Source: Planctomycetota bacterium (GTDB taxonomy: Bacteria > Planctomycetota > UBA1135 > UBA2386). From it: a stretch of 64,000 nucleotides of DNA. Positions 44,099 through 64,000 of the stretch are shown piece after piece. Each line of letters begins with the position of its first letter. Within the stretch, counting starts at the first letter, position 1. Location: assembly GCA_046290465.1 (NCBI GenBank), contig JBKAGP010000001.1, positions 2,560,001 through 2,624,000 of the forward strand. Direction: 5' to 3'. A program made the translations under genes and the position numbers. The notes below the pieces were generated by a model that saw only the letters and a list, made by a program, of their open reading frames with translations, was not told where the DNA came from and searched no databases.

Positions 44099-45073
44099 GT
44101 GGCAGATTCCGACGATCTGGCGGCAGCGATCCGCGCCGGCGACCGCAGCGCCCTGGCGCGCGGCATCACCCTCGTGGAGAGTCGGCGTGCGGCCGACCTG
44201 CCGGCCGCCGAAGCGCTGCTCGCGGCGCTGCTGCCGCACAGCGGCGGCGCGATCCGCGTCGGCATCACCGGGGCGCCGGGAGTCGGCAAGAGCACGCTGA
44301 TCGAACGGCTGGGCCTGCAGCTCTGCGATGCCGGTCGTCGCGTCGCGGTGCTCGCCGTCGACCCCAGTTCGACGGTCACCGGCGGCTCGATCCTCGGCGA
44401 CAAGACCCGCATGGACGGGCTGAGCCGGCACCCACGCGCGTTCATCCGGCCGTCGCCGGGCGGCGGCACGCTCGGTGGAGTCACCAACCGCACGCAGGAA
44501 GCGATGCTGGTCTGCGAGGCGTCGGGCCACGACATCGTGCTGGTCGAGACGATCGGCACCGGCCAGTCGGAGGTCGCCGTGCACGGCATGGTCGACTTCT
44601 TCCTGGTGCTGCTGTCGCCGGCCGCCGGCGACGAACTGCAGGGCATCAAGCGCGGCGTCATGGAGCTCGCCGACGGCGTGCTGGTGCACAAGGCCGACGG
44701 CGACCTGCTGCCGGCTGCCAACCGGACCGCGCAGCAGTGCCTGCTGGCGATGCGGGTGCTGCACGCCGGCGACCGCGCGCCGCCGGCCGTGGTCGTCGGC
44801 TCGTCGAAGACCGGCGACGGCCTCGCGCCGCTGTGGAGTTCGATCGAGCGCTACGTCGAGGCACGCCGCGCCGACGGCACGTTCGAGGCACGCCGCCGCG
44901 ACCAGGCGATCGAGTGGCTCGAGCGCACCGTGCGCGACGCGCTGCTGGCGGACTTCCTGAGCGCTCCGTCGATCGTCACCGAGCTCGAGCAGGCCCGCCG
45001 GCGCGTCGCCGACGGCGAGCAGGTGCCGACCGCCGCCGCGCGCGACCTGCTGCGCCGCTCGCGTCAGCGCTGA
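44099..45073 (+). CDS. meaB: Methylmalonyl-CoA mutase-associated GTPase MeaB/ArgK
   Basis: LARGITLVES, GITGAPGVGKST, AVDPSS..GGSILGDKTRM, ETIGTGQSE, GDELQGIKRG. Confidence 0.95.
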   Translation: MADSDDLAAAIRAGDRSALARGITLVESRRAADLPAAEALLAALLPHSGGAIRVGITGAPGVGKSTLIERLGLQLCDAGRRVAVLAVDPSSTVTGGSILGDKTRMDGLSRHPRAFIRPSPGGGTLGGVTNRTQEAMLVCEASGHDIVLVETIGTGQSEVAVHGMVDFFLVLLSPAAGDELQGIKRGVMELADGVLVHKADGDLLPAANRTAQQCLLAMRVLHAGDRAPPAVVVGSSKTGDGLAPLWSSIERYVEARRADGTFEARRRDQAIEWLERTVRDALLADFLSAPSIVTELEQARRRVADGEQVPTAAARDLLRRSRQR

Positions 45074-46212
45074 GCTTCGAGCCGCTTGCGCCGCTGCTCG
45101 ATCTCGGCCTGCCACTCGGGCAGCGCGACCCAGCGATCGATGTTGTCGAGGTCGCGTTCGGCGTTGCCGGTGTCGCCCCGCTGCAGCGCCGCGTCGATGC
45201 GGCGAAGCCGCTTGCCGAGCCACTCGGCCCCGTCGCGCAGCAGCTGCTCGCGCTCGGCGCGCACCTCGGCAGCGTCGGGGTTGCGGCCGAGGAACGCGTC
45301 GATGCGCGCCATCGCCCCGCGGTAGTCGCGCCACTGGAAGCGCAGCCGGGACCGCGCCGCGAACACCACGTCCGCCGCCGTCTCGGGCGTGCCGAGGCCG
45401 GCGTCGCCGACGTAGCGCCCGCGCAGCTCGGTGACCGCGGCGCGCAGTGGCTTGCCGTCGGGGTGCCATTCGCAGAGCTCGCCGTACTCGTCCATCCAGT
45501 CGTCGCAGAGGCGGACCAGCTCGCGCGCGGCGGGCCGTTCGGGCTGGCCGAGGTAGCGCTGCACGAACGACTCGAGCAACCCGTGCTCGCGGCGCGCCGC
45601 CGACACCTCGAGTGCGGCCGCGTTCTCGAGCATCAGCCGGCGGATGTCGCGCTGCAGCGCCAGCGCCCGGTCCTTGGCTTCGCCCGTGGCCTCCTTCAGG
45701 GCGAACTCGAGCGTCTCGAGGGCGCGCTCCGGACGATTGTTGTCGTACTGGATCTGCGCCAGCTCGACGTAGTGCATCGGCGAACGCGGCCAGGTCGAGT
45801 TGCCGAGCCTTCGCAGCACGAACAGCGCCACGCCGAGCACCGCCACGGTGATCAGCACGGCTGGCCAGGTGCTGGTGGGCGAACGCCGGGACGGGCGGCG
45901 ACCGGCGGACGCACCGTCACGGCCGGCGCGAGCACGCCCCCCACGGGCGCCGGCCGGCGCCGCCGCGCCGTCGTCGAACCACGTCACGCGCACGCGGCCG
46001 ACGTCGACCGACTGGCCGTCTGCGAGGTCCTTGCACAGCAGGTCCTGGCCGTGGATCCGCAGCGGCTGGCCGGCCTCCGGCGACTCGATGCGCACGCCGC
46101 CGGCGATCGGCACCACCCGCAGCGAGCCTCCCTGCACCAGCAGCGGCTGGCCCGCGACGCGACAACGCGTGCGTTCGCCGCGCTCGTCCAGGATCTCCAG
46201 CTCGCCGGTCAC
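45064..46212 (-). CDS. Membrane-anchored hypothetical protein (degenerate FHA-like N-terminus, TM, helical/TPR-like C-terminus)
   Basis: GTG 46212; beta-rich N-terminus ending LADGQSVDVGRVRV; TM WPAVLITVAVLGVALFVL; helical remainder. Starts 10 nt after the stop of the CAP gene. Confidence 0.65.
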   Translation of the reverse strand: MTGELEILDERGERTRCRVAGQPLLVQGGSLRVVPIAGGVRIESPEAGQPLRIHGQDLLCKDLADGQSVDVGRVRVTWFDDGAAAPAGARGGRARAGRDGASAGRRPSRRSPTSTWPAVLITVAVLGVALFVLRRLGNSTWPRSPMHYVELAQIQYDNNRPERALETLEFALKEATGEAKDRALALQRDIRRLMLENAAALEVSAARREHGLLESFVQRYLGQPERPAARELVRLCDDWMDEYGELCEWHPDGKPLRAAVTELRGRYVGDAGLGTPETAADVVFAARSRLRFQWRDYRGAMARIDAFLGRNPDAAEVRAEREQLLRDGAEWLGKRLRRIDAALQRGDTGNAERDLDNIDRWVALPEWQAEIEQRRKRLEAQR

Positions 46213-50215: not shown

Positions 50216-51961
50216 CTACAGGCCGAGGGTGCCGAGCACGCCGTTCGAGGTCAGCAGGTTCGCCGGGTTGGCGAGCGTCAGGCTGATCGACTGGGCGCTG
50301 ATCTGGAAGCCCGTCAGCGCGGTGTTGCTCGGGATCGGGAAGCTGGTCGTCGAAACGCCGCCGTTGCTGATGCCCGACAGGCTGCCGAGCGCCTGGTTGA
50401 TCCAGATCGAGCAGCCCGGCGCGTTGAAGCCGATGACCGACAGCGGCAGGCCGGTGCCCTGGGCGTCGCCGAAGAACGTGATCGAGACCGGCGAGACCGG
50501 GTCGATGTTGCTCGTCGTCAGGTCCCAGCTGCCACCGAGGACCGGCAGGTTCGAGTCGAGTTCGAGCGGCGCGATGCCGTTGTCGAAGACCATCACGCCC
50601 GTCAGCAGCTCCGCGCTCCAGTCGGTATCGCGAACGACCGTCGCGTTGCCCGGCGTCGCGCCGAACAGCGGCGTGTGCCAGACGCTCGCCCCGGTGAACG
50701 ACATGCTGTCGAAGACGATCGTGCAGTTGCCGGTCGCCACCTCGATCTGGTACTGCCAGGTGTCCGTGCCGGTGCCGTTGTAGGGCTGCACGCCGACCCA
50801 GGTCACGTAGGCGATGCCGCCGATCTCCTCGACGAGCACCTGACCGGCCTGGTTCGGGCTCCAGTCGTACCACGGCCCGCAGATGGTCGGATCGACGAAG
50901 GCCTCGAACTCGGCGAGCGTCGGGGACCAGTCGGCCGGCGCCGCCGGCGCGTTGTCCGACAGGTGCACGTAACCGTTGGTGCAGATCTGCAGCGTGCTGG
51001 TGACGCCACCGGGCACGGGCATCGGCGCCGACAGCGTGAACGCGCCGAAGGCATCGTCCGTCGTCGCGACGACGGTCGCCGCGGCGGTCGGCGCGACGTA
51101 TGTTCCCGGGATGCTGTCGAGGATCGTGTACTCGGCGCCCGTGCGCAGGAACGTGATCGCCGAACCCGAGCCCATGATGTCGGGCAGCGTCGCGCCGCCG
51201 GCCGTGTTGCCGAACAGCTCGTAGCGCGCATCGACCTGCGAGATGCAGCCTTCACCGTAGACGAGGCGGGTGCCGCAGCCGGCGTTGGCGACCACCGGCA
51301 CGTAGCCTGGGTTGGTCGCGATCAGCGTGCAGGTGAGGCCCTGCAGGTCCAGCGAGTTGGCCGCGAACACTTCGTGCGTCATGTCGTCGGGCGACGGGAT
51401 GCTCGCCGACAGGTCGATCGAAGCCGCCTGCACCGTGCCGAGGCCCGGGCTGACGCCGGCGATCGCTTCGGTCACCTGGTAGGCGGTCGACTCGTAGCTG
51501 AGGTCGACGTCGCCGGTGGCGCGCAGCGTGCACTGCAGGTTCATCTGCGGCGTGTTGCCGAACGCGACGACGTTGACCCACGTGACGGTGCACTGCCCGG
51601 GCACGCTGGTGTCGACCAGCACGTCGCCGCCGTTGGCGACGATGCAGTTGAGGTCGTCCCACAGCACGGCGACGCGCGGCGCACCCGTGGCCATGTCGGC
51701 GGCCGACGGCGACAGGTCGCTGTCGGTGATCGCGGCGCTACCGTCGGACAGGTAGCAGAACCCGTTGGTCGACGGGTGCACGTACTGGTAGGTCGCGCCC
51801 CCGATCGGGAACGCGAAACCCATGTCGATACCGTTGCCGGAGTTGACGACGACGTCGTCGCCGCCGCCGTACGAGGTGGCACCGGCGCCGGCGGTGATGC
51901 ACTGGCCCATGACGGCCGGTGCGAGAAGGGAGAGGGTCAGCGACCCGAGGAACTTCTGCAT
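50216..51961 (-). CDS. Secreted surface protein, paralog of 36557..38146, with lineage-type C-terminal domain
   Basis: ATG 51961 MQKFLGSLTLSLLAPAVMGQ; nidogen-like segments (MGFAFPIGG, STNGFCYL, LWDDL); C-terminus PVLGGSWDLTT..IDPVSPVSITFFG..NAPGC..NLLTSNGVLGTLGL. Confidence 0.85.
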   Translation of the reverse strand: MQKFLGSLTLSLLAPAVMGQCITAGAGATSYGGGDDVVVNSGNGIDMGFAFPIGGATYQYVHPSTNGFCYLSDGSAAITDSDLSPSAADMATGAPRVAVLWDDLNCIVANGGDVLVDTSVPGQCTVTWVNVVAFGNTPQMNLQCTLRATGDVDLSYESTAYQVTEAIAGVSPGLGTVQAASIDLSASIPSPDDMTHEVFAANSLDLQGLTCTLIATNPGYVPVVANAGCGTRLVYGEGCISQVDARYELFGNTAGGATLPDIMGSGSAITFLRTGAEYTILDSIPGTYVAPTAAATVVATTDDAFGAFTLSAPMPVPGGVTSTLQICTNGYVHLSDNAPAAPADWSPTLAEFEAFVDPTICGPWYDWSPNQAGQVLVEEIGGIAYVTWVGVQPYNGTGTDTWQYQIEVATGNCTIVFDSMSFTGASVWHTPLFGATPGNATVVRDTDWSAELLTGVMVFDNGIAPLELDSNLPVLGGSWDLTTSNIDPVSPVSITFFGDAQGTGLPLSVIGFNAPGCSIWINQALGSLSGISNGGVSTTSFPIPSNTALTGFQISAQSISLTLANPANLLTSNGVLGTLGL

Positions 51962-52184
51962 CTTGCGAATCGGAGAGACGTGGCGGGAATCCGCGCACGA
52001 ACAACCTGGTACAGAGGGGCGAGCCCAGGTGGGGCGAACCAAGGGCAGGTGCGGGCATGGTAGCGCGCCGGCGCGATCTTGCTGATGCGCGCTCCGGATC
52101 CTGCACGTGCCAAAGCTGCAAGCACGATTGCGGATCGACGAATGCACGCGTCGACGAACGCGCGCGTCTACGCTGCGCCGCGGA

Positions 52185-54056
52185 TCAGCGCGGCGTCTCC
52201 GGGAACTTCAGGTACGGCAGCTTCACGCCGTCGAACTCGAAGTTGTCGATGCGCAGCTCCGGCGGCGGCTCGAAGCCGGCGCCGCCCTCGAACGCGATCA
52301 GATCGTTCTGCTCGACCCCGTCGCCCGAGACGCCGAGCGCGCCGACCAGCTGGCCGTTCTTGTAGAGCGGCACCGAGCCGGGGAAGAACGTCAGGCCGTT
52401 CTGGTAGCCCGGATCGGCGGTCTCGTTGCCCCAGCGGTCGACCTGGCCGGGCAGCTGGTTGAGCAGCGCCAGGTTGTAGAGCGGCCCCGGCGCCGTGTTG
52501 CCCTGCGCCGGCGTGAAGTTCGGCAGCGCGGCGATGTATTCCGCCTGGCTGAACGTGCCGCCGATGCCCGGCGGGTAGAACGGCTGCGACAGGAAGCCGA
52601 GCGTGCGGGTCGTCAGCGCGATGCCGCGGTTCTGCCCGGTGGGGTCGGTCGGGAAGCCCTGCCACGCATCGCCGAACGGGAAGTCGAAGCCGCTGTTGGA
52701 GACGTTGGTCGAGAACGGACCGCCGGGACGGCAGTAGTAGACCGTCGAACGCGCCTTGGCCGGCACCACGTCGATCGCGTCGGTCAGCGTGTCCTCCATC
52801 CGGTAGTGCGCCAGGATCAGGCCGCGCGCGTCGACGATCGTCGCGATGATCTTCGACGAACTGCCGAGCGGGAGGCGCACCTGGCCACGCGTGATGTTCG
52901 CGCTGGCGACACACTGCGCGATGATCGTCTCGACGTCGTTCTGCGTCAGCACCTCGCCGCCGTTGCCGGTCTGTGCCGGGCGCGGGCCGATCAGGTAACC
53001 GAACGGGTCCTCGCGGCCGGGCACGGGCGCCTGCACGAACGCGCCGGGCGCAGCGCCGACGCGCGCCTGGTAGCCGGCAGGGATCGTCGTCTGCTTCACG
53101 TAGGGCAGCAGCACCCCGACGATCGTGATCGCGCCCTCGAGCGGGATCGCGTCGAAGAAGAAGTCCTCGTCGCCGACCGCACCCGAACCCGACGCACCCT
53201 GGATCGCCGCATACTCACCCGCCGCGACGTCCGGCTCACCGGCCTGCGGGCCCGACGTGCGCACGACGTAGACGCCGACGCCGCCCACCAGGCGGGCGAC
53301 CCCGCTGGCGTTGGCCTTGAACAGCGGCACCGCGCCCGGCAACAGCGTGATGCCGGGGCTCGGGAACGTGCCGCCGATGTTGCGCGACGGCTGGAAGAAG
53401 ATGTTCGCCGCGTTCGGATCGGGCAACGGCTCCCCGGGCGGGCCCGGCTGCGCGTTGTTGGTGTTGAACAACGTCGGCGGCGTCGTCAGGCCGGTCGCCA
53501 CGTTGGCGCCGCGGTTGGTCGAGTTGATCTGCCACAGCGGCCCCTGCGGGGTGCCGGCGACGCCGGAGCAGCGCCGGGTCGGCGCGATCACCGTGTTGCC
53601 GGCGCCGCTGGTCGGCAGCTGCGAGGCGATCAGTTCGTCCGCGAACGTCGGCGGGAAGTGGAAGCGCCCGAGCGTCTCGACGGTGCGCGACGACAGCGGC
53701 GCCTGGCTGTTGGAGAAGAACGACGTCGTGCGCGCCAGGCTGACGGCGATGTTGTCGGCGTCGGTCTCGGTCGCCCCCACCGTCGAGTAGACGCCGAGGA
53801 TGTCGCCGGTCCGATCGGTGACCGCCGCGTGGATCTCGATCGTGGCCGGTGCGATCGCTTCGATCGAGTTGATCGCGCGCGCCAGGATCGTGTTCACCTC
53901 GACAGCGGTCAGCGGGATCGCCGGACCACCGGTGACGAAGATCGTCGGCGCCGACGTGCCGTTGGCGCTGCACGAGCTGAGGCCGATCGGCGCGGCGGTG
54001 CCGGCGACGGCGAGCAGGCCGAGCGCGACCCAGCGCTTCTTGGAGAGGAGAGTCAT
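52185..54056 (-). CDS. Lipoprotein with two GlcG/HbpS (heme-binding) domains
   Basis: ATG 54056, lipobox-like GLSSC. Domain 1: AAVTDRTGDILG..LARTTSFF..PGAVPLFK..LVGGVGV. Domain 2: IVDARGLILA..AKARS..PGSVPLYKNGQLVGALGVSGDGVEQND. Confidence 0.8.
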   Translation of the reverse strand: MTLLSKKRWVALGLLAVAGTAAPIGLSSCSANGTSAPTIFVTGGPAIPLTAVEVNTILARAINSIEAIAPATIEIHAAVTDRTGDILGVYSTVGATETDADNIAVSLARTTSFFSNSQAPLSSRTVETLGRFHFPPTFADELIASQLPTSGAGNTVIAPTRRCSGVAGTPQGPLWQINSTNRGANVATGLTTPPTLFNTNNAQPGPPGEPLPDPNAANIFFQPSRNIGGTFPSPGITLLPGAVPLFKANASGVARLVGGVGVYVVRTSGPQAGEPDVAAGEYAAIQGASGSGAVGDEDFFFDAIPLEGAITIVGVLLPYVKQTTIPAGYQARVGAAPGAFVQAPVPGREDPFGYLIGPRPAQTGNGGEVLTQNDVETIIAQCVASANITRGQVRLPLGSSSKIIATIVDARGLILAHYRMEDTLTDAIDVVPAKARSTVYYCRPGGPFSTNVSNSGFDFPFGDAWQGFPTDPTGQNRGIALTTRTLGFLSQPFYPPGIGGTFSQAEYIAALPNFTPAQGNTAPGPLYNLALLNQLPGQVDRWGNETADPGYQNGLTFFPGSVPLYKNGQLVGALGVSGDGVEQNDLIAFEGGAGFEPPPELRIDNFEFDGVKLPYLKFPETPR

Positions 54057-54058
54057 GG

Positions 54059-55741
54059 CTACCAGGTCGTCAGGATGTTGGTGAACACGTTGTAGCGGAT
54101 GTCGTCCGAGTCGTAGATCCGCGCAAAGCCGTCGTCCGGGAACAGCGCCGAGGCGCCGAACTGCAGGATGACGTTGTTGGTCAGGAACGGCCGATACTGC
54201 GTCCCGACGAAGATCTCGGTGCCGATCGACTTGTCGACGTCGGCAGCCTGCAGCAGGAACTCGAGCGAATTGGTCTTGTCGAAGCGCAGGTAGGTGAAGC
54301 CGGCCTGCGCGCGCCACTTCGGCGTCAGCTCGAAGTCGCCGGCCATGCCGAACAGGATCACCCCGGGGTTGACGAAGTTGGACTGGCCCTGCGTCTTGCT
54401 GGTCTGCAGGTCGGCCAGCGGACTGAACGGCTGCGTCAGCGCGGTGCCGACGAACTTCAGCGCCTGGCTGTTCCAGAACGAGAACTGGCCGCCACCGAAG
54501 TTCGGCGCGTCGTTGATCGCGTCGAAGCCGGTCGCGTCGCCGTCGCGCGGATCGCTGTCCCCCGACGCCCACAGGAAGAACGCGCGCGGCCGCCACCAGT
54601 CGATGTCGTAGCTCAGCTCGAACGCCGCCAGCGTCGAATCGATGTCGACGCTGCGCGCGGCGATCTCGTTCTGCGACTCCTCGCCGAGCGCCTTGTAGAG
54701 CGCGTGCGTGACGTTCCAGCGGCCGAAGTGGCCCTCGCCGGCCCAGCCGAAGTAGTAGGCGTCGATCTCGTTCGGCGTGAAGTTGCCGAGCGGCTTGGGC
54801 GAGACCAGGAAGCGGTTGTCGTCGAACTCGAAGCCGCGGCGGTCGCGGTTGTAGTGGAACGAGAACGACGTGGTGTAGCCGAGCACCGGCCAGTCCTGCC
54901 GGTAGACGTTCGCGATGAACACGTTCTGGTCACGATCCTCGAGGTTGTTGAGCTGCGAGTTCGTGTCCTTGTCGAGCGTGTCGAACAGCGCGACGTTGTA
55001 CTGCCACTTGTTGTTGTCGGCGTTGCCGAACAAGCGGATGCCGAGCTGGCTGTCCTCGAAGATGAAGCCGCGGAAGTCGCTGCGGAACGGCAGGATGCCG
55101 GCCTCGAGCGACATGAAGTCGTAGCGGTCGTTCCAGTCGAACAGGTGGTATTCGAGGAACGCCTCCTGCATCGAGAAGTCGCCGCGGTTTCGGGTCGTGC
55201 CCTTGGCCGGATCGATCTCGACGACGCCGACCTCCTCGACCTCGAGGCGGGTGTAGTTGAACACCGGCGTCACCCGGATCCGCCAGTCGACCGGCTTGAA
55301 CGCCTGCTGGCCGCGGAACAGGTCGAACGAGATCGCCAGGTCGTTCTGCAGGAACGACTGCTTGCCGTCGCCGAAGAACGACTGCGCCACCGGCCCGGGA
55401 CCGGTGATGCCGGACGGCGTCGGCACGTCCCGCACCTCGTAGAACAGCCGGTTGGTGGCCGTCAGCGCGAAGAACAGGTCCTCCTGCCCGAGGATCGGGA
55501 AGTCGCCCTTCAGCACGTTCTGCCGGTAGGGGTTCCACGGGCTGGCGCGCTCGTTGATCGAGTACGGCGGCGGCTCGATGCCGCCGACCGAGCGCCCGGG
55601 TGCGAACCAGCGCGACCCGATCGGGTCGAAGTCGCGTGGCGCGGGCTTCTCCTGTGGTGGCTCCGCCTGCTGCGCCACCAACGGTGACGCCAGCGCGAGC
55701 GCGAGCGGCGTGAGCAGGATGCAACGAACCCGACGCGTCAT
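54059..55741 (-). CDS. Outer-membrane beta-barrel protein (alginate-export/porin-like)
   Basis: Signal ...LVAQQ; QEAFLEY; many amphipathic aromatic strands; ASGDSDPRDG..FD loop; C-terminal aromatic W. Its stop lies 2 nt before the GlcG gene start. Confidence 0.8.
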   Translation of the reverse strand: MTRRVRCILLTPLALALASPLVAQQAEPPQEKPAPRDFDPIGSRWFAPGRSVGGIEPPPYSINERASPWNPYRQNVLKGDFPILGQEDLFFALTATNRLFYEVRDVPTPSGITGPGPVAQSFFGDGKQSFLQNDLAISFDLFRGQQAFKPVDWRIRVTPVFNYTRLEVEEVGVVEIDPAKGTTRNRGDFSMQEAFLEYHLFDWNDRYDFMSLEAGILPFRSDFRGFIFEDSQLGIRLFGNADNNKWQYNVALFDTLDKDTNSQLNNLEDRDQNVFIANVYRQDWPVLGYTTSFSFHYNRDRRGFEFDDNRFLVSPKPLGNFTPNEIDAYYFGWAGEGHFGRWNVTHALYKALGEESQNEIAARSVDIDSTLAAFELSYDIDWWRPRAFFLWASGDSDPRDGDATGFDAINDAPNFGGGQFSFWNSQALKFVGTALTQPFSPLADLQTSKTQGQSNFVNPGVILFGMAGDFELTPKWRAQAGFTYLRFDKTNSLEFLLQAADVDKSIGTEIFVGTQYRPFLTNNVILQFGASALFPDDGFARIYDSDDIRYNVFTNILTTW

Positions 55742-55904
55742 TCGATCCTCATGTGGCTAGGGGTCTCCGACCGACAGAGAGCGAGGGCATTGGAGCCGCG
55801 TCCGGCGCAGCGTGAAAGAACTTTCGATGACGATGTCATGGGACTTTCCCGCTCGCCTGTTCGCTTCCCGACGGACCCTCTACTAGCATCCCAACGCACC
55901 CGCA

Positions 55905-57479
55905 ATGCCACGCTTCCAGCTGCTCGTTCGTGAACTCGGGAAGGAGCCTCGCGTCGTCCCGCTCGGCGACCCGATCGTCGTCGGCCGCTCCCGCAGCGCC
56001 GACCTGACGGTCGACGACGAGGAGGTCGGTCGCAAGCAGTTCCAGATCGGGGTCACCTCGGGATTCGTCGTGCTCGAAGGGCTCGGCGCGACCAACCCGA
56101 CGCGCGTCGACGACGGCACGATCCAGTCCGGCGAGAAGACCACGCTGCCGGTCGGCGCGATGATCCGTGTCGGCAAGACCGAGTTCGTCATCGAGTCGAC
56201 CGACAAGACCGAAGGCATCCCCGCGCCGTCGTCGCCGCACGTCGACCAGACGATGGTAGCCGGCGGACCCGGTCCTGGTGGTGCAGGTCCCGGTGGTGCA
56301 GGCCCGGGTGGTGACGGTGCTGGTGGTGACGGTGCTGGCGCGCAACCCGCCGCCGAGCCCGACCCGGCACCGATGAACACGATGGAGTTCCGCCCGCCGG
56401 GCGTCGGTGCTCCTGGCGCCGCGCCGCCGAGCGCGCCGCCGCCGGACGAGGCGCCGATGAACACGATGGAGTTCCGGCCGCCCGGTGTCGGCGGCCCCGG
56501 AGCAGGAGGTCCGCCGGCTGGTGGCGCAGCATCCCCACCCGCTGGCGGCGAAGAGAATTACGACCAGACGATGGCCAAGGGCTTCCGCCCGGGGCAGTTC
56601 GCTCCCGGCGGTGCGACGCCCCCACCCAAGAGCCCGCCAGCCGAGACACCCCCAGCCGAGACACCCCCAGCCAAGACACCCTTAGCCAAGGCTCCGCCCG
56701 CGCAACCGCCGAAGGCGACCGCACCGCAACCGGCACCAGCCCAGCCGGCCGCACCGCAACCTGCACCGCCCCGACCCGATCCGGAACCGGAGCCGCAGCC
56801 CGCAGCACCGCCGAAGGCCGGGCCCGCGACGCCGGACCGGCCGAAGACGGTCGCCGTGCGTCCCGAGGACCTCGCCGCCGTTCCGGGCGCGCCGCTCGGC
56901 GACGACCTCGAGTCGCGGCTGCACCAGTCGATGCCGCGCCTGTTCGTGAAGGGCGAAGGGCTGAAGCGTCCGGTGCGGTTGATGAAGAGCAACAACCGCG
57001 TCGGCCGGGCCGAGACCGCGGACGTGCTGCTGCCGCACGAGTCGGTGTCCGAGCAGCACGCCGAGATCCGCTTCGACGGCGAGCTGTGGACGCTGCACGA
57101 TTCCGGCAGCACCAACGGCACGATCGTCGACGGCCAGCACCTTCGCGGCGGCTCCCAGGTGCTGCGGCGCAACGCGCTGATCGGCATCGGCGCGCTGAAG
57201 CTGATCTTCCTGTGCATCGACCGCAGGCACGAGGCGCAGGACCGCCGCGACGAAGAACGCGCGCTGCAGCTGCTCGGCAGGTCGGGCCGCATCGATCGCG
57301 GCACGGCCAACGAGATCCGCCAGATGGTGCGCAGCGACGCGCACCAGTCGATCGCCGAGATCGTGCTGCGCGACACCCCGATGTCGCCGACCGACTGGGC
57401 CAACGCGGTCGTCACCGCCCGCTCCAAGGTCTCGTTGCTGCAGCGACTGCTGCGGCTGTTCTCGTTCGGCAAGCGATGA
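55905..57479 (+). CDS. Double-FHA protein with Pro/Gly-rich linker
   Basis: N-terminal semi-degenerate FHA (VVGRSRS..GATNPT); canonical second FHA (VGRAE..VSEQHAEI..DSGSTNGT); low-complexity linker with repeats. Confidence 0.85.
   Translation: MPRFQLLVRELGKEPRVVPLGDPIVVGRSRSADLTVDDEEVGRKQFQIGVTSGFVVLEGLGATNPTRVDDGTIQSGEKTTLPVGAMIRVGKTEFVIESTDKTEGIPAPSSPHVDQTMVAGGPGPGGAGPGGAGPGGDGAGGDGAGAQPAAEPDPAPMNTMEFRPPGVGAPGAAPPSAPPPDEAPMNTMEFRPPGVGGPGAGGPPAGGAASPPAGGEENYDQTMAKGFRPGQFAPGGATPPPKSPPAETPPAETPPAKTPLAKAPPAQPPKATAPQPAPAQPAAPQPAPPRPDPEPEPQPAAPPKAGPATPDRPKTVAVRPEDLAAVPGAPLGDDLESRLHQSMPRLFVKGEGLKRPVRLMKSNNRVGRAETADVLLPHESVSEQHAEIRFDGELWTLHDSGSTNGTIVDGQHLRGGSQVLRRNALIGIGALKLIFLCIDRRHEAQDRRDEERALQLLGRSGRIDRGTANEIRQMVRSDAHQSIAEIVLRDTPMSPTDWANAVVTARSKVSLLQRLLRLFSFGKR
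56367..56492 (+). repeat. Intragenic duplicated motif APMNTMEFRPPGVG (two ~42-bp copies)
   Basis: Copies at 56367-56408 and 56451-56492; 15-bp tandem repeats also nearby (about 56271-56339 and 56637-56690). Confidence 0.85.
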
Positions 57480-57501
57480 CGCCGCCGGCTGTACCAGGAC
57501 G

Positions 57502-58590
57502 ATGAACCTCGCCTTCCTCCGCTCCCCGCACGCCGTCGTCGCGATCGCCGCGGTCGGCGCGTTCGTCGCCTGGCACCTGGTCGCAGCGCAACCGTTCGGG
57601 GACCGCGGCGACGACAATGTCTGGTACCTGCTGACGACCGGCTGGGTCGCGGTCGCGGCCTACGTCGTGCTGGCGCTCTACGCCGCCCGCCGCGCCGCGC
57701 ACCGCCTGCGGCTCAGCCCCGAGTTCGGCTGGGAGGCGAAGCTGCCGCAGCTCGAACGGGCCCAGACGCAGCTGAGCGAACTCGAGAACCGCGTCGCCCG
57801 CCGCGAGCTGATCGGCAGGGGCGAGGTCCACAAGGCCGCGCGCGACATCCTGCGTCGCCACGACGTGCACCGCGTGCTGCGCGTCGACGTGCAGCGCGAC
57901 GGCGCCGCCATCGGGCTGCTGCGCGTCGACGTGCAGCCGCGCAACGCACTCGGCACGCTGGCGAGCTGGCTGTCGGCGCACGTCTGGTACGGCATCGCCG
58001 CGGCGCTGCTGGTCTGGTTCCACGGCGGCGGCCGCTGCGGCTCGACGATGGGGCTGCTGCTCAACGCGCTCAGCTACTTCGTGATCGGTAGCGGCCTGCT
58101 CGGCGCGTTCTTCTGGGCGGTCGGACCGACCTGGCTGACCCGCGCCGAACGCGAGCTGTCGATCGAGAAGGCGGTCGCCCTGCGCGCCCACTTCGACCGC
58201 AAGTGCAAGGCCGCCAACGACGCGCTCGCGTCCGCGCCCGAACGGCGTGAGCGCGCCGAGGCCGAGGTCGCCGAACGCCAGGCCGCGGCTGCGGCCGCCG
58301 CCAAGGCCGCCGACGGCAACAAGGACAAGAAGCTGGCCAAGGCCAAGAAGGACGCCGACAAGGAGCTCAAGAAGGCCAAGGGCGAGGTCGCGGCGATCGA
58401 CAAGGAGGTCGCCGCCCTGCCCACGGAGCTGACCGTGCTCGAGGGCCAGCGCGACCGCGTCCGCCGCGAAGCCGCGCGCCTCGAGCGCTACCGGACCCTG
58501 CTACGCGGCTGGCGTCTGTTCCACGTGCCGTGCTCGGTCCTGCTGCTCGCGCTGGTGGCCGTGCACGTGCTGAGCATCTGGTACTACTGA
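57502..58590 (+). CDS. Integral membrane protein with two Hx13H helices (putative di-heme b, ferric-reductase/cytochrome b-like)
   Basis: About 5 TM helices; HVWYGIAAALLVWFH and HVPCSVLLLALVAVH; Lys/Ala coiled-coil loop. Confidence 0.7.
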   Translation: MNLAFLRSPHAVVAIAAVGAFVAWHLVAAQPFGDRGDDNVWYLLTTGWVAVAAYVVLALYAARRAAHRLRLSPEFGWEAKLPQLERAQTQLSELENRVARRELIGRGEVHKAARDILRRHDVHRVLRVDVQRDGAAIGLLRVDVQPRNALGTLASWLSAHVWYGIAAALLVWFHGGGRCGSTMGLLLNALSYFVIGSGLLGAFFWAVGPTWLTRAERELSIEKAVALRAHFDRKCKAANDALASAPERRERAEAEVAERQAAAAAAAKAADGNKDKKLAKAKKDADKELKKAKGEVAAIDKEVAALPTELTVLEGQRDRVRREAARLERYRTLLRGWRLFHVPCSVLLLALVAVHVLSIWYY

Positions 58591-58612
58591 TCCTCCCCCA
58601 CCAAACGACGAC

Positions 58613-60166
58613 ATGACCCTCGCTGCCGACAACGTCGACGCGCTGCTCGCGATGCCGCTGTTCGCGGACGTCGACGACGAGCTGCTGGACGGGCTGCGCG
58701 CCGAAGCGGACATCACCGACGGCACGTTCGAATGGGAACCCGGCGCCGCACCGCGGGAGGGCTTCCTGACGTTCTGCGAACTGCGCGACGGCGAGGTCTG
58801 CGTCACGCAGGGTGAGCTGGCGACGAAGTTCGTGTTCATCCTGCACGGCCAGATCGAGGCGCTGCAGGCGCGCGCCGGTCGCGAGGTCTACCGCCATCGC
58901 GAGCTCGGCCCGGGCGACTGGTTCGGCGAGATCTCGACGATCAGCGATTCGCCGGCGCTGGCGTCCTACCGCGCCGACGGCGAGACGCTGGTCGCGGCCA
59001 TCGACGCGCGCATGTTCAAGCGGCTCTACGCCGAGGACGACACCTTCAAGGAGCGCATCGACGAGGGCTACCTCGACAACCTCGGCCTGCACCTGCGGCT
59101 GTCGCCGCTGTGCAAGGACCTCGACGACCAGGCCCTGGCGCAGCTCGAGACCAGCGCCGAGCTGGTCAGCTTCGAGGACGGCGAGGTGGTGATCGAGCAG
59201 GGCACGCCGTGTGAAGAGGTCTACCTGGTGCGCACCGGCGGCCTCGCCTGCTTCGTCGAGAGCCACGGCGGCGAGCGCACCCTGGCGTTCTACAAGGGCA
59301 ACGCGACCTTCGGCGAACACTCGCTGCTGAGCGAGGGCGCCGAGTGGCCGGCGAGCTACCGCACGCTGATGCAGACCTCGCTGATCAAGCTGCCGAAGAA
59401 GTCGTTCGCGCTGCTGTCGGATGACGCGCGCAGCGGTCTGACCCGCGCCGCCAACCGCCTCGTCGGCGGCGACGACGCGCGCGCCGCCGAGCAGGGCGAC
59501 GCCAACGATGTCGGCTCGCGCAGCGTGCTCGACGAACTGTTCGTGATGGTCGAGCGCGAGTCGGTCAAGGGCGGTCGCGCGCTGGTCATCGACCGCACCC
59601 GCTGTGTGCGCTGCAACATGTGCGTCGAGTCGTGCGAGACCGTGCACGACGACGGCATCCCGCGCCTGTCCAAGGTCGGCACGCCGGTCGCGACCGACGA
59701 GGTGCTGATCACCGCCTGCTACCACTGCGACACGCCGCAGTGCATGTTGTCGTGCGAGTACTCGGCGATCCGGCGCGACGCGCAGGGCCGGGTGCGGTTC
59801 GAGTACGACATGTGCGTCGGCTGCGCCGGCTGCATCGACGGCTGTCCCTACGGCGTCATCCGCCTGATCGAGAAGAAGCCGCCAGCGCAGGCGCGACCTT
59901 CGTTCCTGCAGAGCCTGCCGGTGATCGGCAAGCTGTTCGGCACGCCGACGCAGCCCGAGCAGCCGGCCGCGGCGACCGACGAGGCGGGCGAGCCGGTCAA
60001 GCCGCGCTCGGTCGGCGCCGGCGGCAAGGTCTCGCCGGTCAACGGCAAGACGATCAAGTGCGATCTGTGCGCCGGCCTGCCGTTCGAAGCCTGCGTCTAC
60101 AACTGTCCGACCACCGCGATCCTGCGCAAGGAACCGCAGAGCCTGTTCGACCGGAGGGCACGCTGA
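58613..60166 (+). CDS. Two cyclic-nucleotide-binding domains fused to a DmsB/NrfC-like 4x[4Fe-4S] ferredoxin domain
   Basis: cNMP motifs GDWFGEIS and NATFGEHS; Cys groups CVRCNMCVESC, CYHCDTPQCMLSC, CVGCAGCIDGCP and CDLC..ACVYNCP; no signal peptide. Confidence 0.88.
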   Translation: MTLAADNVDALLAMPLFADVDDELLDGLRAEADITDGTFEWEPGAAPREGFLTFCELRDGEVCVTQGELATKFVFILHGQIEALQARAGREVYRHRELGPGDWFGEISTISDSPALASYRADGETLVAAIDARMFKRLYAEDDTFKERIDEGYLDNLGLHLRLSPLCKDLDDQALAQLETSAELVSFEDGEVVIEQGTPCEEVYLVRTGGLACFVESHGGERTLAFYKGNATFGEHSLLSEGAEWPASYRTLMQTSLIKLPKKSFALLSDDARSGLTRAANRLVGGDDARAAEQGDANDVGSRSVLDELFVMVERESVKGGRALVIDRTRCVRCNMCVESCETVHDDGIPRLSKVGTPVATDEVLITACYHCDTPQCMLSCEYSAIRRDAQGRVRFEYDMCVGCAGCIDGCPYGVIRLIEKKPPAQARPSFLQSLPVIGKLFGTPTQPEQPAAATDEAGEPVKPRSVGAGGKVSPVNGKTIKCDLCAGLPFEACVYNCPTTAILRKEPQSLFDRRAR

Positions 60167-62358
60167 TGGCTCGCACCTGGCGCATCGAGGTCCAGAACGG
60201 CAACGACGAGCTGTCGTTCGAGAACGGCATGGTGACGCTCGGCGGGCGCACCGGCGTCGACGTGGTGCTGCGCGACGTGATGGTCGCCGACCGCCACTGC
60301 GTGATCACCTACGAGGACGGCTTCGTGCTGCGCGACACCGGCTCGGTGACCGGCACGTGGGTCGACGGCAGCCGCGCCACCCCGGCGGCGACGCTGACGG
60401 ACGGCGGCAGCATCGTGATCGGCACGACCAGGATCGCGGTCGCGATCGACGACGACGACGGCGTCGCGGTGCTCAAGCTCGGCAGCGACCCGGGGAGCTT
60501 CTGGTGGAAGCGGCCCGGCAAGGGCGCGTTCGACAACGACCCGGACCAGCTGGCCCGCAGCGAGGCGAGCTTCGGTCGCTTCCCGTCGCTGCAGCTCGGC
60601 AACCGCGTCGCGCTGATCGCCGGCGCCGTGGTGCTGATCGGCGCGACGTTCGTGAGTTCGGTGATGGAGCCGCTCGCCGATCCGGGTCCGCTGCTGCCGT
60701 CGCACGCGCTGGTCGCGACCGCGTCGATCGACGACCCGGCGATCCACGCCGGCATCCGCCGATGCGTCGAACTGTCGGGCGAACAGGGCTGCAACGTCTG
60801 CCACACCACCGGCAGCGGCGCCCCCGAACGCAAGTGCGCGCAGTGCCACGGCCTCGAGGGCGAGATGGCGCACGCGGGCTCGTGGCGCCACCCCTACCAC
60901 AACGACGGCAAGGTCAGCGACCAGCAGTTCTGTGTCGTGTGCCACACCGACCACAACGGCACCGCCGACCGCAAGCCGGCGTCGGACGCGCTGGTCGGCA
61001 ACTGCTCGGCCTGCCACGGCGACGACCCCGAGTTCCAGCAGAAGGTCGACCAGGCGCGCATCGTGCTGCCGCCGCAGCAGCCGCTCGCGTTCGAGGACCT
61101 GCGCTTCCCGCACGACACGCACCTCGCGCAGCAGATCGCCTGCGACGTCTGCCACCAGGTCGACGCGCAGGTGCTCGCCGACTTCGAGAAGGGGCTGCCG
61201 GACGATCCGGCGCGGCACGACTACGCGACCGTCGCCTACGAGGTGTGCGCGTCGTGCCACGTGCAGGACGCGCCGGCCGTCAACATGACCGCCGCACAGC
61301 AGGTCGACTGGCGCAGCAAGGCCGAGAAGGCGCAGTGGCGGGTCCGCTGGCACGGCACCGACGACGGCGGCCGCAACTGCCTGTCGTGCCACACGCAGAC
61401 GCAGCGGGGCGGCGAGGACGTGATCGGGCCCGAGCAGAAGACCGTCGCCCGCGGCGTGTTCTCGCCGCAGCTGTACCGCGACGAGCGGGCGCTCTACACC
61501 AACCCGACCCGTTCGCACGACGAGCAGTTCCAGGCGCACGCAGGCGACAAGGCCTGCACCGAGTGCCACCTGGACGGCAAGGTCCGGACCGCGATGCCCG
61601 ACGCGCGCCCGGCGCGGCCGTTCTGGCACGGCCTGCACCTGACCGCGGGCTCGCTGACGCCCGGCCCGGCGGCCGGGCAGGTCAGCACCAACGCGACCGA
61701 GGGCTGCGTGTCGTGCCACGCGGACCTCGGCGGCGAAGGCGCCGACCACCTGACGCCGTTCGACCAGGGAACCTACCACTGGCCCGAGAGCCCCGCTGCG
61801 CAGGCGGCGTGCAAGGAGTGCCACCGCGAAGGCGAAGCGCTGCTGCCGCTGCGCCCGGTGCAGCTGCGTTCGACCGCCGAGACCGTCCAGCGACCGGACT
61901 TCCCGCACGACGTGCACGTGGCGAGCGCGGCGTTCGGCAAGGACGGCACGCTCGCGAACGGCTGCTTTGCGTGCCACGAGTTCTCGGCCGCCGACGACGA
62001 CGCGCCGTTCACGCAGGTGCCGCGCACGCTGCCCGGCGCGATGGACTGCACCGCCTGCCACAGCGGCCACGCCGACGTCGGCGGCGGCGACTGCCAGCAG
62101 TGCCACCCCAAGATCGACGGCCGCAGCAACTCGTTCCTGTGGCAGGCGAAGCTCACCGAGCCGAGCAGCGAACGGCCGTGGCCGGCCCTCAACGGCTTCC
62201 GCCACCTCAGCGTCGGCCACAAGGACGAGGACTGCGCCGCCTGCCACGGCGCCAGCAACCTCGACCAGGCCGACACGCTGGCCAAGGTGCGGGTCCCGGA
62301 CGAATCCGCCGCCCTGTGTCGCGACTGCCACCTGCAGAAGCAGTTCCACTGGCGCTGA
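60166..62358 (+). CDS. FHA-like + TM-anchored multiheme cytochrome c (15 CxxCH)
   Basis: TGATG overlap, ATG 60166; FHA-like N-terminus (VADRHCVI..DTGSVTGTWVDG); TM VALIAGAVVLIGATFV; 15 CxxCH counted; FPHxxH distal-His motifs. Confidence 0.9.
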   Translation: MARTWRIEVQNGNDELSFENGMVTLGGRTGVDVVLRDVMVADRHCVITYEDGFVLRDTGSVTGTWVDGSRATPAATLTDGGSIVIGTTRIAVAIDDDDGVAVLKLGSDPGSFWWKRPGKGAFDNDPDQLARSEASFGRFPSLQLGNRVALIAGAVVLIGATFVSSVMEPLADPGPLLPSHALVATASIDDPAIHAGIRRCVELSGEQGCNVCHTTGSGAPERKCAQCHGLEGEMAHAGSWRHPYHNDGKVSDQQFCVVCHTDHNGTADRKPASDALVGNCSACHGDDPEFQQKVDQARIVLPPQQPLAFEDLRFPHDTHLAQQIACDVCHQVDAQVLADFEKGLPDDPARHDYATVAYEVCASCHVQDAPAVNMTAAQQVDWRSKAEKAQWRVRWHGTDDGGRNCLSCHTQTQRGGEDVIGPEQKTVARGVFSPQLYRDERALYTNPTRSHDEQFQAHAGDKACTECHLDGKVRTAMPDARPARPFWHGLHLTAGSLTPGPAAGQVSTNATEGCVSCHADLGGEGADHLTPFDQGTYHWPESPAAQAACKECHREGEALLPLRPVQLRSTAETVQRPDFPHDVHVASAAFGKDGTLANGCFACHEFSAADDDAPFTQVPRTLPGAMDCTACHSGHADVGGGDCQQCHPKIDGRSNSFLWQAKLTEPSSERPWPALNGFRHLSVGHKDEDCAACHGASNLDQADTLAKVRVPDESAALCRDCHLQKQFHWR

Positions 62359-62374
62359 GCGCCGCGTCGGTGGC

Positions 62375-62396
62375 CGGACCGGTTGCGACCGGTCCG
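62375..62396. terminator. Hairpin between the two convergent cytochrome genes
   Basis: CGGACCGGT-tgcg-ACCGGTCCG. Confidence 0.5.
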
Positions 62397-62400
62397 CCCG

Positions 62401-64000
62401 TCAGCCGTTCGACTTCAGGCCGGGCCAATTGGCGAAGTCGTTGCCGAGGCGGGCCCGTTCGGCCGGGCGCTCGGGGAACATGCCCCACTCGCTGAGGGTG
62501 CCGAAGTCCTTCCAGTGGCAGCTCATGCAGCCGGCGGGCTGGTTCTGGAGCTGCTGCTTGAGCCGCTCCTTCGGCTGGCCGCGGTGGAAGTCGCCCGAGC
62601 CGGTGGGCAGCGCCGCGAACACGAAGTTGGCGGCGCGGGCCAGGATCGGACGCAGGCGCTGGCGGCCACCGACCTCGAAGGTGTTGGCCCGGTGGCACTG
62701 CGAGCACTCGCTGCCGAGCGGGTGGAACTGGCGGTCGGTGAAGCCGGCGAACGCGCCGGTCTCGAGGCCGTAGCGGGCATCGGCCAGCGACGCCTCGGTG
62801 CCGCGGATCGACGGCACGTCGACGATGTCCGGCGCCGCCGGCGTGTGGTGGCACTGGACGCAGCTCTGCACCTCGTCGCCGAACAGGTACTCGGTGCTCG
62901 GCCCGTCGTCGTCGGCCACGTGGTTGTGGCACTCGTTGCAGCGCAGCGCCGACGGCTTGGTCGTGATGTTCTCGGCGCCGCGCTGGTGGCAGGCGGAGCA
63001 GTCCAAGCCCGCGCTGTGCGGCCCGTGCGGGAACGCCACCGCCGCGCGCGACGCCGGCACCGCGCCCTGCTCCACGTCGACGCGCAGTTCGCCGCCGCGG
63101 TGGCAGGTCGAACAGACCTTCTCGTCGTAGGTGCGGTAGTCGACCGCCAGCGTCTGCGACGACGTCGACGACGCCGCGGTCGCGTGGCAGCCGACGCAGT
63201 TGGCGCTGGTCAGCTCGGTGCCGACCGGCGGCAGGTGCGTCTCGTGGCGGAACGTCTTCTCGATCAGTCGCGACGGCAGCGCCGGCACGACCGCCCGGTG
63301 GCACTTGCGGCACTCGCCCTGCACCGCCGGCGACCCCGGCTCGGCGCTGGTCACGAACGGGTGCGTCTGGCCGCGGAACACGAACGTCTTCTCCGACCAG
63401 CGCTGCACCTCGACCTCCGGCCGCCGCCCCTTGATGTCGGGCTGGCCGAACTCGTGGCAGGCCGTGCACTGCTTGGCGACCCAACCGCTGCTGCCGTCCG
63501 CCGACGAACTGCCGTGCAGCGGCGCCTTGCCCGCCTGCAGCTCGCCGGTGCTCCAGCCGGGCACCGCGTGGCACTGCTGGCAGTCGCGATAGCGGTGCTT
63601 GCTGGTCTCGCCGTCGAACGGGAAGTCCCGACCGGCGAAGCCTTCGCGTTCGGGGCGATAGGTGTGGCAGTGCTGGCAGGTCTTGTCGTCACCGCCGGCG
63701 AGCTTCGCGTAGGCGTCCTGCGTGCAGACGCCCTCGGTGCGCTCGTCGCGATAGTGGTCCGCGTGGGCGAACGCGCCGAGCGACCACGACGGCCGCTTCT
63801 CGGTCGTCGGCTCGGCGACGCGCGCGGCCTCGACCGCCGACCGCTTGTGGCAGTCCGCGCAGCCCTTCGCGGCGATCGCGCCGGTCCCGACCTCGGTCGC
63901 CGACGCGCCCTGGATGCCGGCGTGGCAGTCGGTGCAGTTGATGCTCAGGTGGTCGCCGTGCGTGAAGTCGCCGCCGCCGACCTCGAGCAGCGCGTTGATG
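62401..64000 (-). CDS. Multiheme cytochrome c, at least 13 CxxCH (5' end beyond window)
   Basis: The frame stays open from 63564 to the window edge by manual translation (INALLEVGGGDFTHGDHLSINCTDCH..CADCH..CQHCH..CQQCH), adding 4 motifs to the 9 in the ORF-track segment. Confidence 0.9.
   Translation of the reverse strand, partial: INALLEVGGGDFTHGDHLSINCTDCHAGIQGASATEVGTGAIAAKGCADCHKRSAVEAARVAEPTTEKRPSWSLGAFAHADHYRDERTEGVCTQDAYAKLAGGDDKTCQHCHTYRPEREGFAGRDFPFDGETSKHRYRDCQQCHAVPGWSTGELQAGKAPLHGSSSADGSSGWVAKQCTACHEFGQPDIKGRRPEVEVQRWSEKTFVFRGQTHPFVTSAEPGSPAVQGECRKCHRAVVPALPSRLIEKTFRHETHLPPVGTELTSANCVGCHATAASSTSSQTLAVDYRTYDEKVCSTCHRGGELRVDVEQGAVPASRAAVAFPHGPHSAGLDCSACHQRGAENITTKPSALRCNECHNHVADDDGPSTEYLFGDEVQSCVQCHHTPAAPDIVDVPSIRGTEASLADARYGLETGAFAGFTDRQFHPLGSECSQCHRANTFEVGGRQRLRPILARAANFVFAALPTGSGDFHRGQPKERLKQQLQNQPAGCMSCHWKDFGTLSEWGMFPERPAERARLGNDFANWPGLKSNG

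Follow-up and report, generated by a model that had tools for sequence, protein, structure and literature searches.

The window, by which we mean the whole 64,000-nucleotide stretch of planctomycete DNA analysed here (G000:C1:2560001-2624000, where G000 is the host genome, a single contig of 6.59 Mb that is 94% complete and whose closest named kin are metagenome-assembled genomes of Planctomycetota), carries a cluster of redox genes that extends 7 kb beyond the window end and numbers nine genes in all. The locus is real, conserved and uncharacterised. With a probability of about one half, we propose that it encodes a regulated electron-export chain of the kind exemplified by NOX, the ferric reductases and Fre-MsrQ-MsrP, which would feed a terminal enzyme built from a decaheme cytochrome and an LVIVD beta-propeller. 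A first-pass annotation, made from the letters of the window alone, had already suggested an uncharacterised trans-envelope redox assembly, a reading that our findings support, and all seven of the genes it delimited were confirmed.

In the proposed mechanism, a thioredoxin reductase (TrxR)-like flavoprotein lacking the redox disulfide would oxidise cytoplasmic NAD(P)H, probably NADPH, and pass electrons through a [2Fe-2S] centre and a 4x[4Fe-4S] domain to two b hemes that would carry them across the inner membrane. From there, electrons would run along two multiheme wires, an anchored 15-heme and a 17-heme cytochrome, to the LVIVD decaheme, the proteins presumably forming a physical complex. 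The decaheme would act on a small substrate let in by an AlgE-like outer-membrane barrel, and a DUF336 lipoprotein would bind or screen that substrate, possibly a carbonyl compound. Control of the flux would come from the cytoplasmic side, through cyclic nucleotide in most lineages and, in this Planctomycetota branch, probably through Ser/Thr phosphorylation read by FHA domains. Membrane potential favours outward electron flow, as in NOX and MsrQ.

The nine genes form three blocks: the divergent arrangement described previously is present (junction at 55741/55905), and a convergent junction lies at 62358/62401. Together they encode 42 c-hemes, and all are single-copy within G000; genes beyond the window are numbered below by continuing past 64000. 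Since the arrangement recurs in close relatives and the gene set, as the earlier reading would require, in five phyla, the cluster is not a product of chance. A public-run contig, possibly from the source sample, covers 52151-64000 with 108 differing letters (~99% identity). A promoter and terminator scan of the locus gave signal no better than chance.

Inner module

An FAD/NAD(P)H oxidoreductase, which had been suspected in the flanking DNA, adjoins the 17-heme gene at 64625-67096 (minus strand, beyond the window; G000:C1:2624625-2627096). The 823-residue protein joins a TrxR/YpdA-like FAD oxidoreductase (Pyr_redox) to two FHA-like domains and a C-terminal Fer2 [2Fe-2S] domain. Unlike thioredoxin reductase, the flavin domain has CxxC in none of 40 rows; Arg215, which follows the second Rossmann motif and which we take to be a sign of NADPH specificity, is present in all 40. 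The best NCBIfam match is YpdA, below cut-off, and the domain is predicted to work more like YpdA or a TrxR-type FNR than like thioredoxin reductase. At numerous sites that other homologs conserve, the flavoprotein of the window locus itself differs from the consensus. Flavin and iron-sulfur domains are tied together in three forms: a single fused protein in Pseudomonadota, Nitrospirota and Bdellovibrionota, a separate TrxR-type plus Fer2 protein in the window locus, and an FNR-type plus Fer2 protein in the ptd cluster, to which we return below. These three arrangements point to NAD(P)H, and not only quinone, as the inner terminal of the chain.

The next component, encoded at 58613-60166 (plus strand), combines two cNMP-fold domains with four [4Fe-4S] sites (16 Cys) and is a PtdE homolog by Pfam and alignment; its 16 cysteines are kept in 62-65 of 65 rows, the remainder being gaps. 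Beside it, at 57502-58590 (plus strand), lies the gene for a predicted five-helix di-heme b inner-membrane protein (IMP), placed in the PCC3/PCC4 IMP (PtdF) family by conserved histidines, a motif test and a tree. It has five hydrophobic segments, with WX3HX13H motifs at 156 and 337 and SGxxG at 197. Among homologs, H160 and H174 are present in 71/71, H341 in 69/71 and H355 in 68/71, and the set of two WX3HX13H motifs and SGxxG in 65 of 68 rows; weak Ni_hydr_CYTB matches and weak Ferric_reduct matches (9/28, best E=0.0013) were also found. The cofactor ligands of these two proteins trace an unbroken path.

In NOX, the outer b heme is the site of O2 reduction, and neither a multiheme wire nor a barrel nor a ligand-binding lipoprotein is needed. 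That difference makes it very improbable that the locus is a NOX-like source of superoxide, H2O2 or reduced metal at the cell surface, used in polymer attack, Mn oxidation or competition and held under tight cNMP or phosphorylation control that would limit self-damage. What speaks for that idea is the passage from an NAD(P)H flavin to a membrane architecture with two HX13H pairs, which has been tied to FRD/NOX proteins (accessible text of PMC5566968), together with regulatory domains that face the cytoplasm and heme-copper oxidases in G000.

For the electron-export chain that we favor, the periplasmic section would be provided by two cytochromes. The first (60166-62358, plus strand) consists of an FHA head, one transmembrane helix and 15 CxxCH motifs, and is the counterpart of PtdG and of a decaheme in other lineages. 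The second (62401-64620, minus strand; G000:C1:2622401-2624620) has its gene start 620 bases outside the window. The first-pass annotation had counted at least 13 hemes in this second protein with the 5' end missing; the cytochrome is real, and it can now be described as an exported 739-residue protein with 17 CxxCH and an N-terminal signal or anchor, standing where other lineages have a tetraheme. The 15-heme and 17-heme proteins spend 36 and 40 residues per heme, respectively, which is wire-like, whereas the LVIVD protein spends 86; PCC3 wires lie at 22-39 (accessible text of PMC5566968).

Outer module

The LVIVD protein, encoded beyond the window at 67160-71215 (minus strand; G000:C1:2627160-2631215), is a 1351-residue lipoprotein with 10 CxxCH motifs and an LVIVD beta-propeller. 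It is 42-72% identical across phyla and has, for 10 hemes, 12 near-invariant non-motif histidines plus Met601. A Protein Data Bank (PDB) search with the single protein gave no match, and one with the profile gave weak heme-motif matches alone, to eight-heme nitrite reductases (E>=0.002). We consider this decaheme a likely candidate for the terminal enzyme.

The barrel gene (54059-55741, minus strand) encodes an AlgE-like outer-membrane beta-barrel of 560 residues with a signal peptide and a C-terminal Trp. The window protein has no Pfam match; its nearest named family is alginate export (Atlas neighbours), PF13372 was matched in 3/56 homologs, and a PDB search with the barrel profile found no relative. 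Strand number, about 18, is a count by eye and hence approximate; an amphipathic-strand script returned 24 segments, taking in the N-terminal extension and loops, and was dropped as too noisy. Homologs carry varied N-terminal additions (SPOR, SH3, AMIN, FN3, HEAT). The first-pass annotation had drawn on porin-cytochrome modules such as MtrAB for comparison; the barrel resembles the 18-strand alginate-export type more than MtrB, and a cytochrome threaded through it is therefore not established.

The barrel is also where a strong, albeit on balance unlikely, rival has to be weighed, namely that the locus is an extracellular electron-transfer (EET) conduit whose hemes extend into the barrel, or all the way through it, and trade electrons in either direction with metals, humic quinones or other cells, possibly drawing on the quinone pool as proposed for PCC3 and PCC4. 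Three of the 150 best barrel homologs (P0035, P0050, P0103) have an N-terminal class III (c3-type) tetraheme fused to the barrel, P0035 representing a cluster of 50 members of which two are named Blastocatellia. It is this fusion and the kinship with PCC3/PCC4, whose membrane protein family is the same, that keep EET strong. The 42 c-hemes in one locus would suit it too, as would genes for 17/18/16-heme or 3-4-heme proteins directly adjoining the barrel gene in L021, L106, L109, L104 and L099, and the homology of the LVIVD heme core to an 11-heme protein of a PCC3-like locus in G000 itself (hhalign 99.9%). On the other hand, an alginate-export-like barrel of about 18 strands by eye compares with up to 42 strands in PCC3 and 26 in MtrB, the named hosts include aerobic heterotrophs, and the ten-heme form has no evident separate extracellular wire cytochrome.

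The third outer component is a tandem DUF336 (GlcG/HbpS-like) lipoprotein of 623 residues with lipobox Cys29 (52185-54056, minus strand), identified by Pfam (PF03928, E=2e-18), by PDB profile matches and from 81 homologs. Its best solved relatives by profile are EfgA (6BWS), OrfY (2A2L), PduOC (5CX7), NahX (9JTH) and HbpS (3FPV), at E-values of 1e-15 to 6e-4; our literature search found no paper for NahX. PduOC binds heme via His18 (accessible text of PMC4923194). In the lipoprotein that position is Ala in 73/81, the best His column reaches 64/81 and no conserved heme ligand is seen, so the heme link implied by the earlier GlcG/HbpS label falls away; identity as an HbpS-type heme sensor was rejected, the axial His being absent. 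The formaldehyde site of EfgA comprises K57, S114 and D121 with R42 (accessible text of PMC8153426). Domain 2 of the lipoprotein has K434 in 81/81, S577 in 78/81 and R419 in 81/81. Where EfgA has D121, Asp is found in 46/81 and the window protein has Asn; the adjacent Asp585 is kept in 77/81. Domain 1 is degenerate. A weak search for longer, fused forms of the lipoprotein gave none.

Signalling domains

A canonical cNMP pocket of the CRP/PKA type has a Gly-Glu pair and a phosphate-binding Arg. In the window protein this Arg is absent from both pockets, and the same is true throughout its Planctomycetota branch (hereafter the clade, one lineage represented mostly by metagenome-assembled genomes, MAGs): Gly-Glu is kept, and Arg is found in 0/19 and 0/19, versus 41/43 and 35/43 for pockets 1 and 2 outside the clade. 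Class III cyclases follow a similar pattern, being found in 39/41 genomes outside the clade versus 5/19 within it; G223, a cyclase-less genome outside the clade, keeps Arg in pocket 1. Among the matches listed, a class III cyclase lies within 20 kb of the cluster in at least 10 of 34 outside-clade genomes with known coordinates, seven of the ten genomes probably being close kin. An SpdA/CpdA-like phosphodiesterase gene lies no more than 5 kb from the decaheme gene in eight loci (L110-L117) and in none of the others searched, and in Sphingobium herbicidovorans MH a metallophosphoesterase gene stands directly 3' of the decaheme gene. G000 has three cNMP domains, two of them in the Fe-S protein of the cluster, and 83 Pkinase matches; no class I or III cyclase match was found in it. 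Thus, the wiring to cyclic nucleotides proposed by the first-pass annotation stands for the family at large, with its intact pockets and adjoining cyclases and phosphodiesterases, and is not supported by the window's own pockets.

A phosphothreonine-binding FHA domain uses Arg, Ser and Asn of three binding loops. The FHA-like head of the anchored cytochrome is present, as had been stated, but the full set is found in 0/44, and the head is therefore more likely a docking domain. The flavoprotein, conversely, has the set intact in its second FHA domain in 6/6 proteins. The double-FHA protein itself (55905-57479, plus strand; Pfam), which has a Pro-rich linker and a small C-terminal helical domain, has a degenerate first FHA domain and a second that is intact in 21/22 clade proteins; it was seen as a cluster member only in one Planctomycetota branch. 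We infer that control is by cyclic nucleotide in most lineages and was probably replaced, in the planctomycete branch, by phosphothreonine-dependent assembly or gating.

Several further features of the double-FHA protein were seen. Its linker (56200-56900) is Pro/Gly-rich, with a 12-residue element repeated twice and Thr-rich repeats as candidate phosphorylation sites, and shows 15-nt length variants between public contigs. The C-terminal helical domain (57225-57476) has two repeats recalling MshEN, an identity that was dropped for want of Pfam support; a transmembrane helix comes after the domain in deeper-branching homologs, and a tail of amphipathic appearance in the clade.

No output domain is present in the cluster, and none of its components is fused to a kinase, cyclase or DNA-binding domain. 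Because the signalling domains are receivers of ligands, they probably control the chain rather than relay its output, contrary to the earlier suggestion that the chain signals to the cytoplasm. The same evidence bears on the possibility that the locus is a redox or ligand sensor, in which the DUF336 lipoprotein and the hemes would perceive a molecule outside the cell, much as HbpS serves SenS, and the cNMP and FHA domains would read the redox state. The DUF336 proteins HbpS and EfgA are indeed sensors (accessible text of PMC8153426 and PMC4923194), and cyclase and phosphodiesterase genes adjoin the cluster in several lineages. However, sensing needs far less than an NAD(P)H flavoprotein and a chain of 42 hemes, the window's cNMP pockets are degenerate, and cNMP and FHA domains are receivers; we consider a sensor improbable.

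Distribution and co-occurrence

The cluster occurs in Planctomycetota, Pseudomonadota, Nitrospirota, Verrucomicrobiota and Bdellovibrionota. Barrel matches were found in 42/301 Planctomycetota genomes and full-length barrels in 10/401 Pseudomonadota genomes, three more matches there being short and weak. A barrel search of GTDB gave 75 loci covering all five phyla, and with the barrel profile, 707 clusters were recovered from 50%-identity representatives at E<=1e-30. A DUF336 gene (66 loci) or an LVIVD gene (45) is present in 72/75 barrel loci, and when the locus spans at least 15 kb (n=42), 37 also have an inner-module gene. These and the following counts include non-independent kin and cover several phyla. 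The membrane protein is found in 42/42 barrel-positive Planctomycetota genomes, as against 99/301 overall, and all 10 barrel-positive Pseudomonadota genomes belong to the set of 13 whose membrane-protein match is strong (E<1e-20). The link persists in G587, where 680 kb separate the two modules, and in G304, where each module has its own contig.

Outside Planctomycetota the usual order is tetraheme, fused FAD-2cNMP-4x[4Fe-4S] protein, membrane protein, FHA-decaheme, DUF336 lipoprotein, barrel and LVIVD decaheme. Among the carriers in culture are Sphingobium/Sphingopyxis (13 plasmid records), Steroidobacter and Dokdonella sp. MW10, and Granulosicoccus is a further named host; Sphingobium, Steroidobacter, Dokdonella and Granulosicoccus are aerobic heterotrophs. 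The full cluster in cultured Sphingobium herbicidovorans MH, Steroidobacter and Dokdonella sp. MW10 makes a question that earlier rested on MAGs directly testable; in S. herbicidovorans MH the genes are B6S01_RS18410-18425 and RS18440-18455.

Some loci show additional features. Six (L118, L119, L120, L144-L146) have the inner module in a genome without this barrel, and in L118 and L119 FAD, cNMP, Fe-S and IMP are fused into a single frame of 1120-1146 residues. Sphingobium-type loci (L155 on NZ_CP020539, and L110-L117) have an NrfG/CycH-like TPR gene adjoining the cluster in addition to the phosphodiesterase; upstream in the Sphingobium locus lie a CHASE2 protein, a TpsB-type transporter and a 2092-residue protein of no named family. 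L030 is titled Luminiphilus, yet its barrel is 86% identical to that of the window and groups with the planctomycete clade, so the contig may be mis-binned; the record title of L072 (Bordetella) likewise looks at odds with its content.

Weighing the proposed electron-export chain

Several observations weigh against the chain as we propose it. At its inner end, several Planctomycetota and Verrucomicrobiota loci have no flavoprotein gene within the stretch examined, and 3/13 Pseudomonadota genomes whose membrane-protein match is strong have the inner module and lack this barrel. At its outer end, the surplus histidines of the LVIVD protein could be structural, and this protein has no catalytic motif and, by sequence and profile PDB searches, no solved homolog; the barrel-tetraheme fusion also fits electron passage at the outer membrane; and, since the residues of the EfgA pocket are for the most part shared by DUF336 proteins in general (accessible text of PMC8153426), they identify no substrate. 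As regards control, the cyclase contrast comes from a clade that is one lineage of mostly MAGs and is therefore not independent evidence, one CYTH protein of G000 could be a class IV cyclase, and the cluster contains no kinase gene. Finally, the hybrid locus described below, on which module exchange depends, is known from one genome.

Neighbouring genes

Directly downstream of the DUF336 gene, a 581-residue secreted-looking beta-rich protein (50216-51961, minus strand) has no Pfam match, and conservation with the cluster was not seen. Further out are two membrane-anchored TPR proteins (46223-49072 and 45064-46206, both minus strand) with FHA-like N-termini by eye and no Pfam FHA match, the larger (46223-49072) having a C-terminal CAP domain. 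Beyond the window and divergent from the LVIVD gene, L002:3255-5036 encodes a protein that looks YCII-like by eye and an ECF sigma factor with DUF6596. G000 as a whole has 19 open reading frames with three or more CxxCH.

Comparison with known systems

MtrCAB and OmbB-OmaB-OmcB are porin-cytochrome conduits, and they share with the window locus a barrel and periplasmic multihemes. They take their input from a quinol dehydrogenase, whereas the input here is a cytoplasmic flavin/Fe-S system; moreover, no MtrA or MtrB family match above cut-off was found in the cluster and the barrel has no PDB relative. In Fre-MsrQ-MsrP and in NOX and ferric reductases, an NAD(P)H flavin delivers electrons through a di-heme b membrane protein to an outer acceptor. 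The window locus is predicted to share this order and differs in its Fe-S relay, multiheme wires, barrel and regulatory domains. By profile search, the fold of the lipoprotein is that of other DUF336 proteins (EfgA, OrfY, PduOC, NahX, HbpS), the window's being tandem, lipid-anchored and about 620 residues long.

No NCBIfam model was matched above cut-off, and identity with an already characterised respiratory complex, a possibility raised previously, was accordingly rejected. The LVIVD heme core gives a partial match to ExtM of a Geobacter selenite/tellurite reduction operon (NF040943; E=3e-18 to 4e-20), at 66-72 bits versus a cut-off of 800 and with no other Ext gene above cut-off. The LVIVD protein of the Tenderia uet cluster, considered as a candidate, is unrelated in context as far as the accessible part of that source goes. 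The cluster is not mentioned in the accessible text of an Oslofjord Planctomycetota paper, and the main text of a peat EET1-4 paper (10.64898/2026.05.27.727921) contains no LVIVD, cNMP or alginate term, although overlap with EET3/EET4 is possible. More broadly, a literature search confined to freely accessible text found no description of an LVIVD/barrel/DUF336 module. In the accessible MHCscan supplement (PMC11475568), a set of unnamed rows agrees with the Steroidobacter cluster in protein lengths and in numbers of hemes; the cluster has hence been catalogued and not interpreted, as far as is searchable. The architecture, for which the first-pass annotation knew of no functional description, has thus been described in part: the inner module matches PCC4/ptd, and for the outer module no description was found.

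PCC3 resembles the window locus in having an IMP with two WX3HX13H motifs and SGxxG, a porin and large multihemes. PCC3 porins are very large (up to 42 strands), with periplasmic wires of median 21 and extracellular ones of median 34 hemes (accessible text of PMC5566968); the window has a 560-residue barrel, proteins of 10, 15 and 17 hemes and an IMP of a separate clade. No cNMP, FHA, LVIVD-repeat or DUF336 protein was seen in four PCC3-like loci examined. Two such loci lie in G000 (L131, C1:4844871-4852529; L132, C1:5002749-5012271), each with a fused Fer4-FAD-IMP gene, a 23-heme cytochrome and a porin, and with a 22-heme protein or 7- and 11-heme proteins besides; the accessible PCC3 text (PMC5566968) does not speak of an IMP fused to FAD-Fer4.

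The closest relative is PCC4/ptd. The ptdABCDEFG genes, a predicted system of unknown function, encode a pentaheme, a porin, an FAD/NAD(P) oxidoreductase, a tetraheme, a cNMP-[4Fe-4S] protein already pointed out there, a ferric-reductase-like membrane protein and a decaheme (Elbon, Stewart and Glass, accessible text of 10.1101/2023.11.21.568154). PCC4 comprises a porin, proteins with 4, 5 and 10 hemes, and an IMP whose defining features are five helices, SGxxG and two WX3HX13H (He et al. 2017, accessible text of PMC5566968); from these gene lists, we take PCC4 and ptd to be one system. We recovered ptd in L128 and 11 more planctomycete loci, and PtdA of L128 matches 5ZE8, a pentaheme cytochrome c552, which fits the relative cited in the accessible text of Elbon et al. 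The cNMP-Fe-S protein of the window is 27% identical to L128 PtdE over 435 residues (E=2e-37), and the membrane protein family is shared, with five transmembrane segments, SGxxG and two WX3HX13H. PtdG is matched by the 15-heme protein at E=3e-4 and by the decaheme of other lineages at E=1e-11. PtdD has no homolog in G000, while the Proteobacteria, Nitrospirales and Bdellovibrionales versions have a c554-like tetraheme (E about 5e-11). The pentaheme PtdA is in none of L015-L126 and shows no homology to the LVIVD protein; PtdB has no match there either and aligns to the window barrel at an hhalign probability of 1%; and the FNR-type PtdC is likewise unmatched in L015-L126, the window flavoprotein being TrxR-type. 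The LVIVD decaheme, the DUF336 lipoprotein and the FHA domains are additions relative to PCC4/ptd. By these comparisons, the inner half is homologous to PCC4/ptd and the outer half has no detectable homology to PtdA/PtdB, and the cluster is predicted to work like a trans-envelope redox chain of the PCC4/ptd type, from which it departs in the pentaheme, the porin and the flavoprotein.

In a midpoint-rooted tree of 68 IMP rows, read without a clade test and excluding 28 loci that were duplicates or very like others as well as rows shorter than 180 residues, the ptd proteins (100/99) and the PCC3-like proteins (100/94) each fall on one side of a branch, and LVIVD-associated IMPs fall in several deep groups. 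In the hybrid genome G128 (L147, G128:C55:65000-79677), window-type genes for the 17-heme cytochrome, IMP, cNMP-Fe-S protein, FHA-15-heme protein and FHA protein adjoin PtdA and PtdB; its IMP nests in the window's clade (100/98), and the genome has no barrel match. Outer modules therefore look interchangeable. One genome, G223, has both the ptd and the LVIVD/barrel systems.

It is tempting to speculate further that these loci belong to a widespread, unnamed class in which a second-messenger-gated NAD(P)H-to-periplasm core, shared with PCC3/PCC4, is combined with interchangeable enzyme-plus-channel modules, here a new multiheme beta-propeller enzyme with a DUF336 carbonyl-binding lipoprotein, and in which the planctomycete branch was rewired from cyclic nucleotide to phosphothreonine; we offer this only tentatively. 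To our knowledge, cyclic nucleotide or phosphothreonine gates no characterised multiheme chain. As a matter of routine, genomic clusters that combine multihemes with a porin are scored as EET for metal respiration. The present cluster is found in nitrite oxidisers as well as aerobic heterotrophs, its inner end is an NAD(P)H flavoprotein, and it swaps outer modules with PCC4/ptd. This suggests that the PCC3/PCC4/ptd group as a whole may consist of regulated pipelines that link NAD(P)H to periplasmic enzymes, and not of quinone-linked mineral wires.

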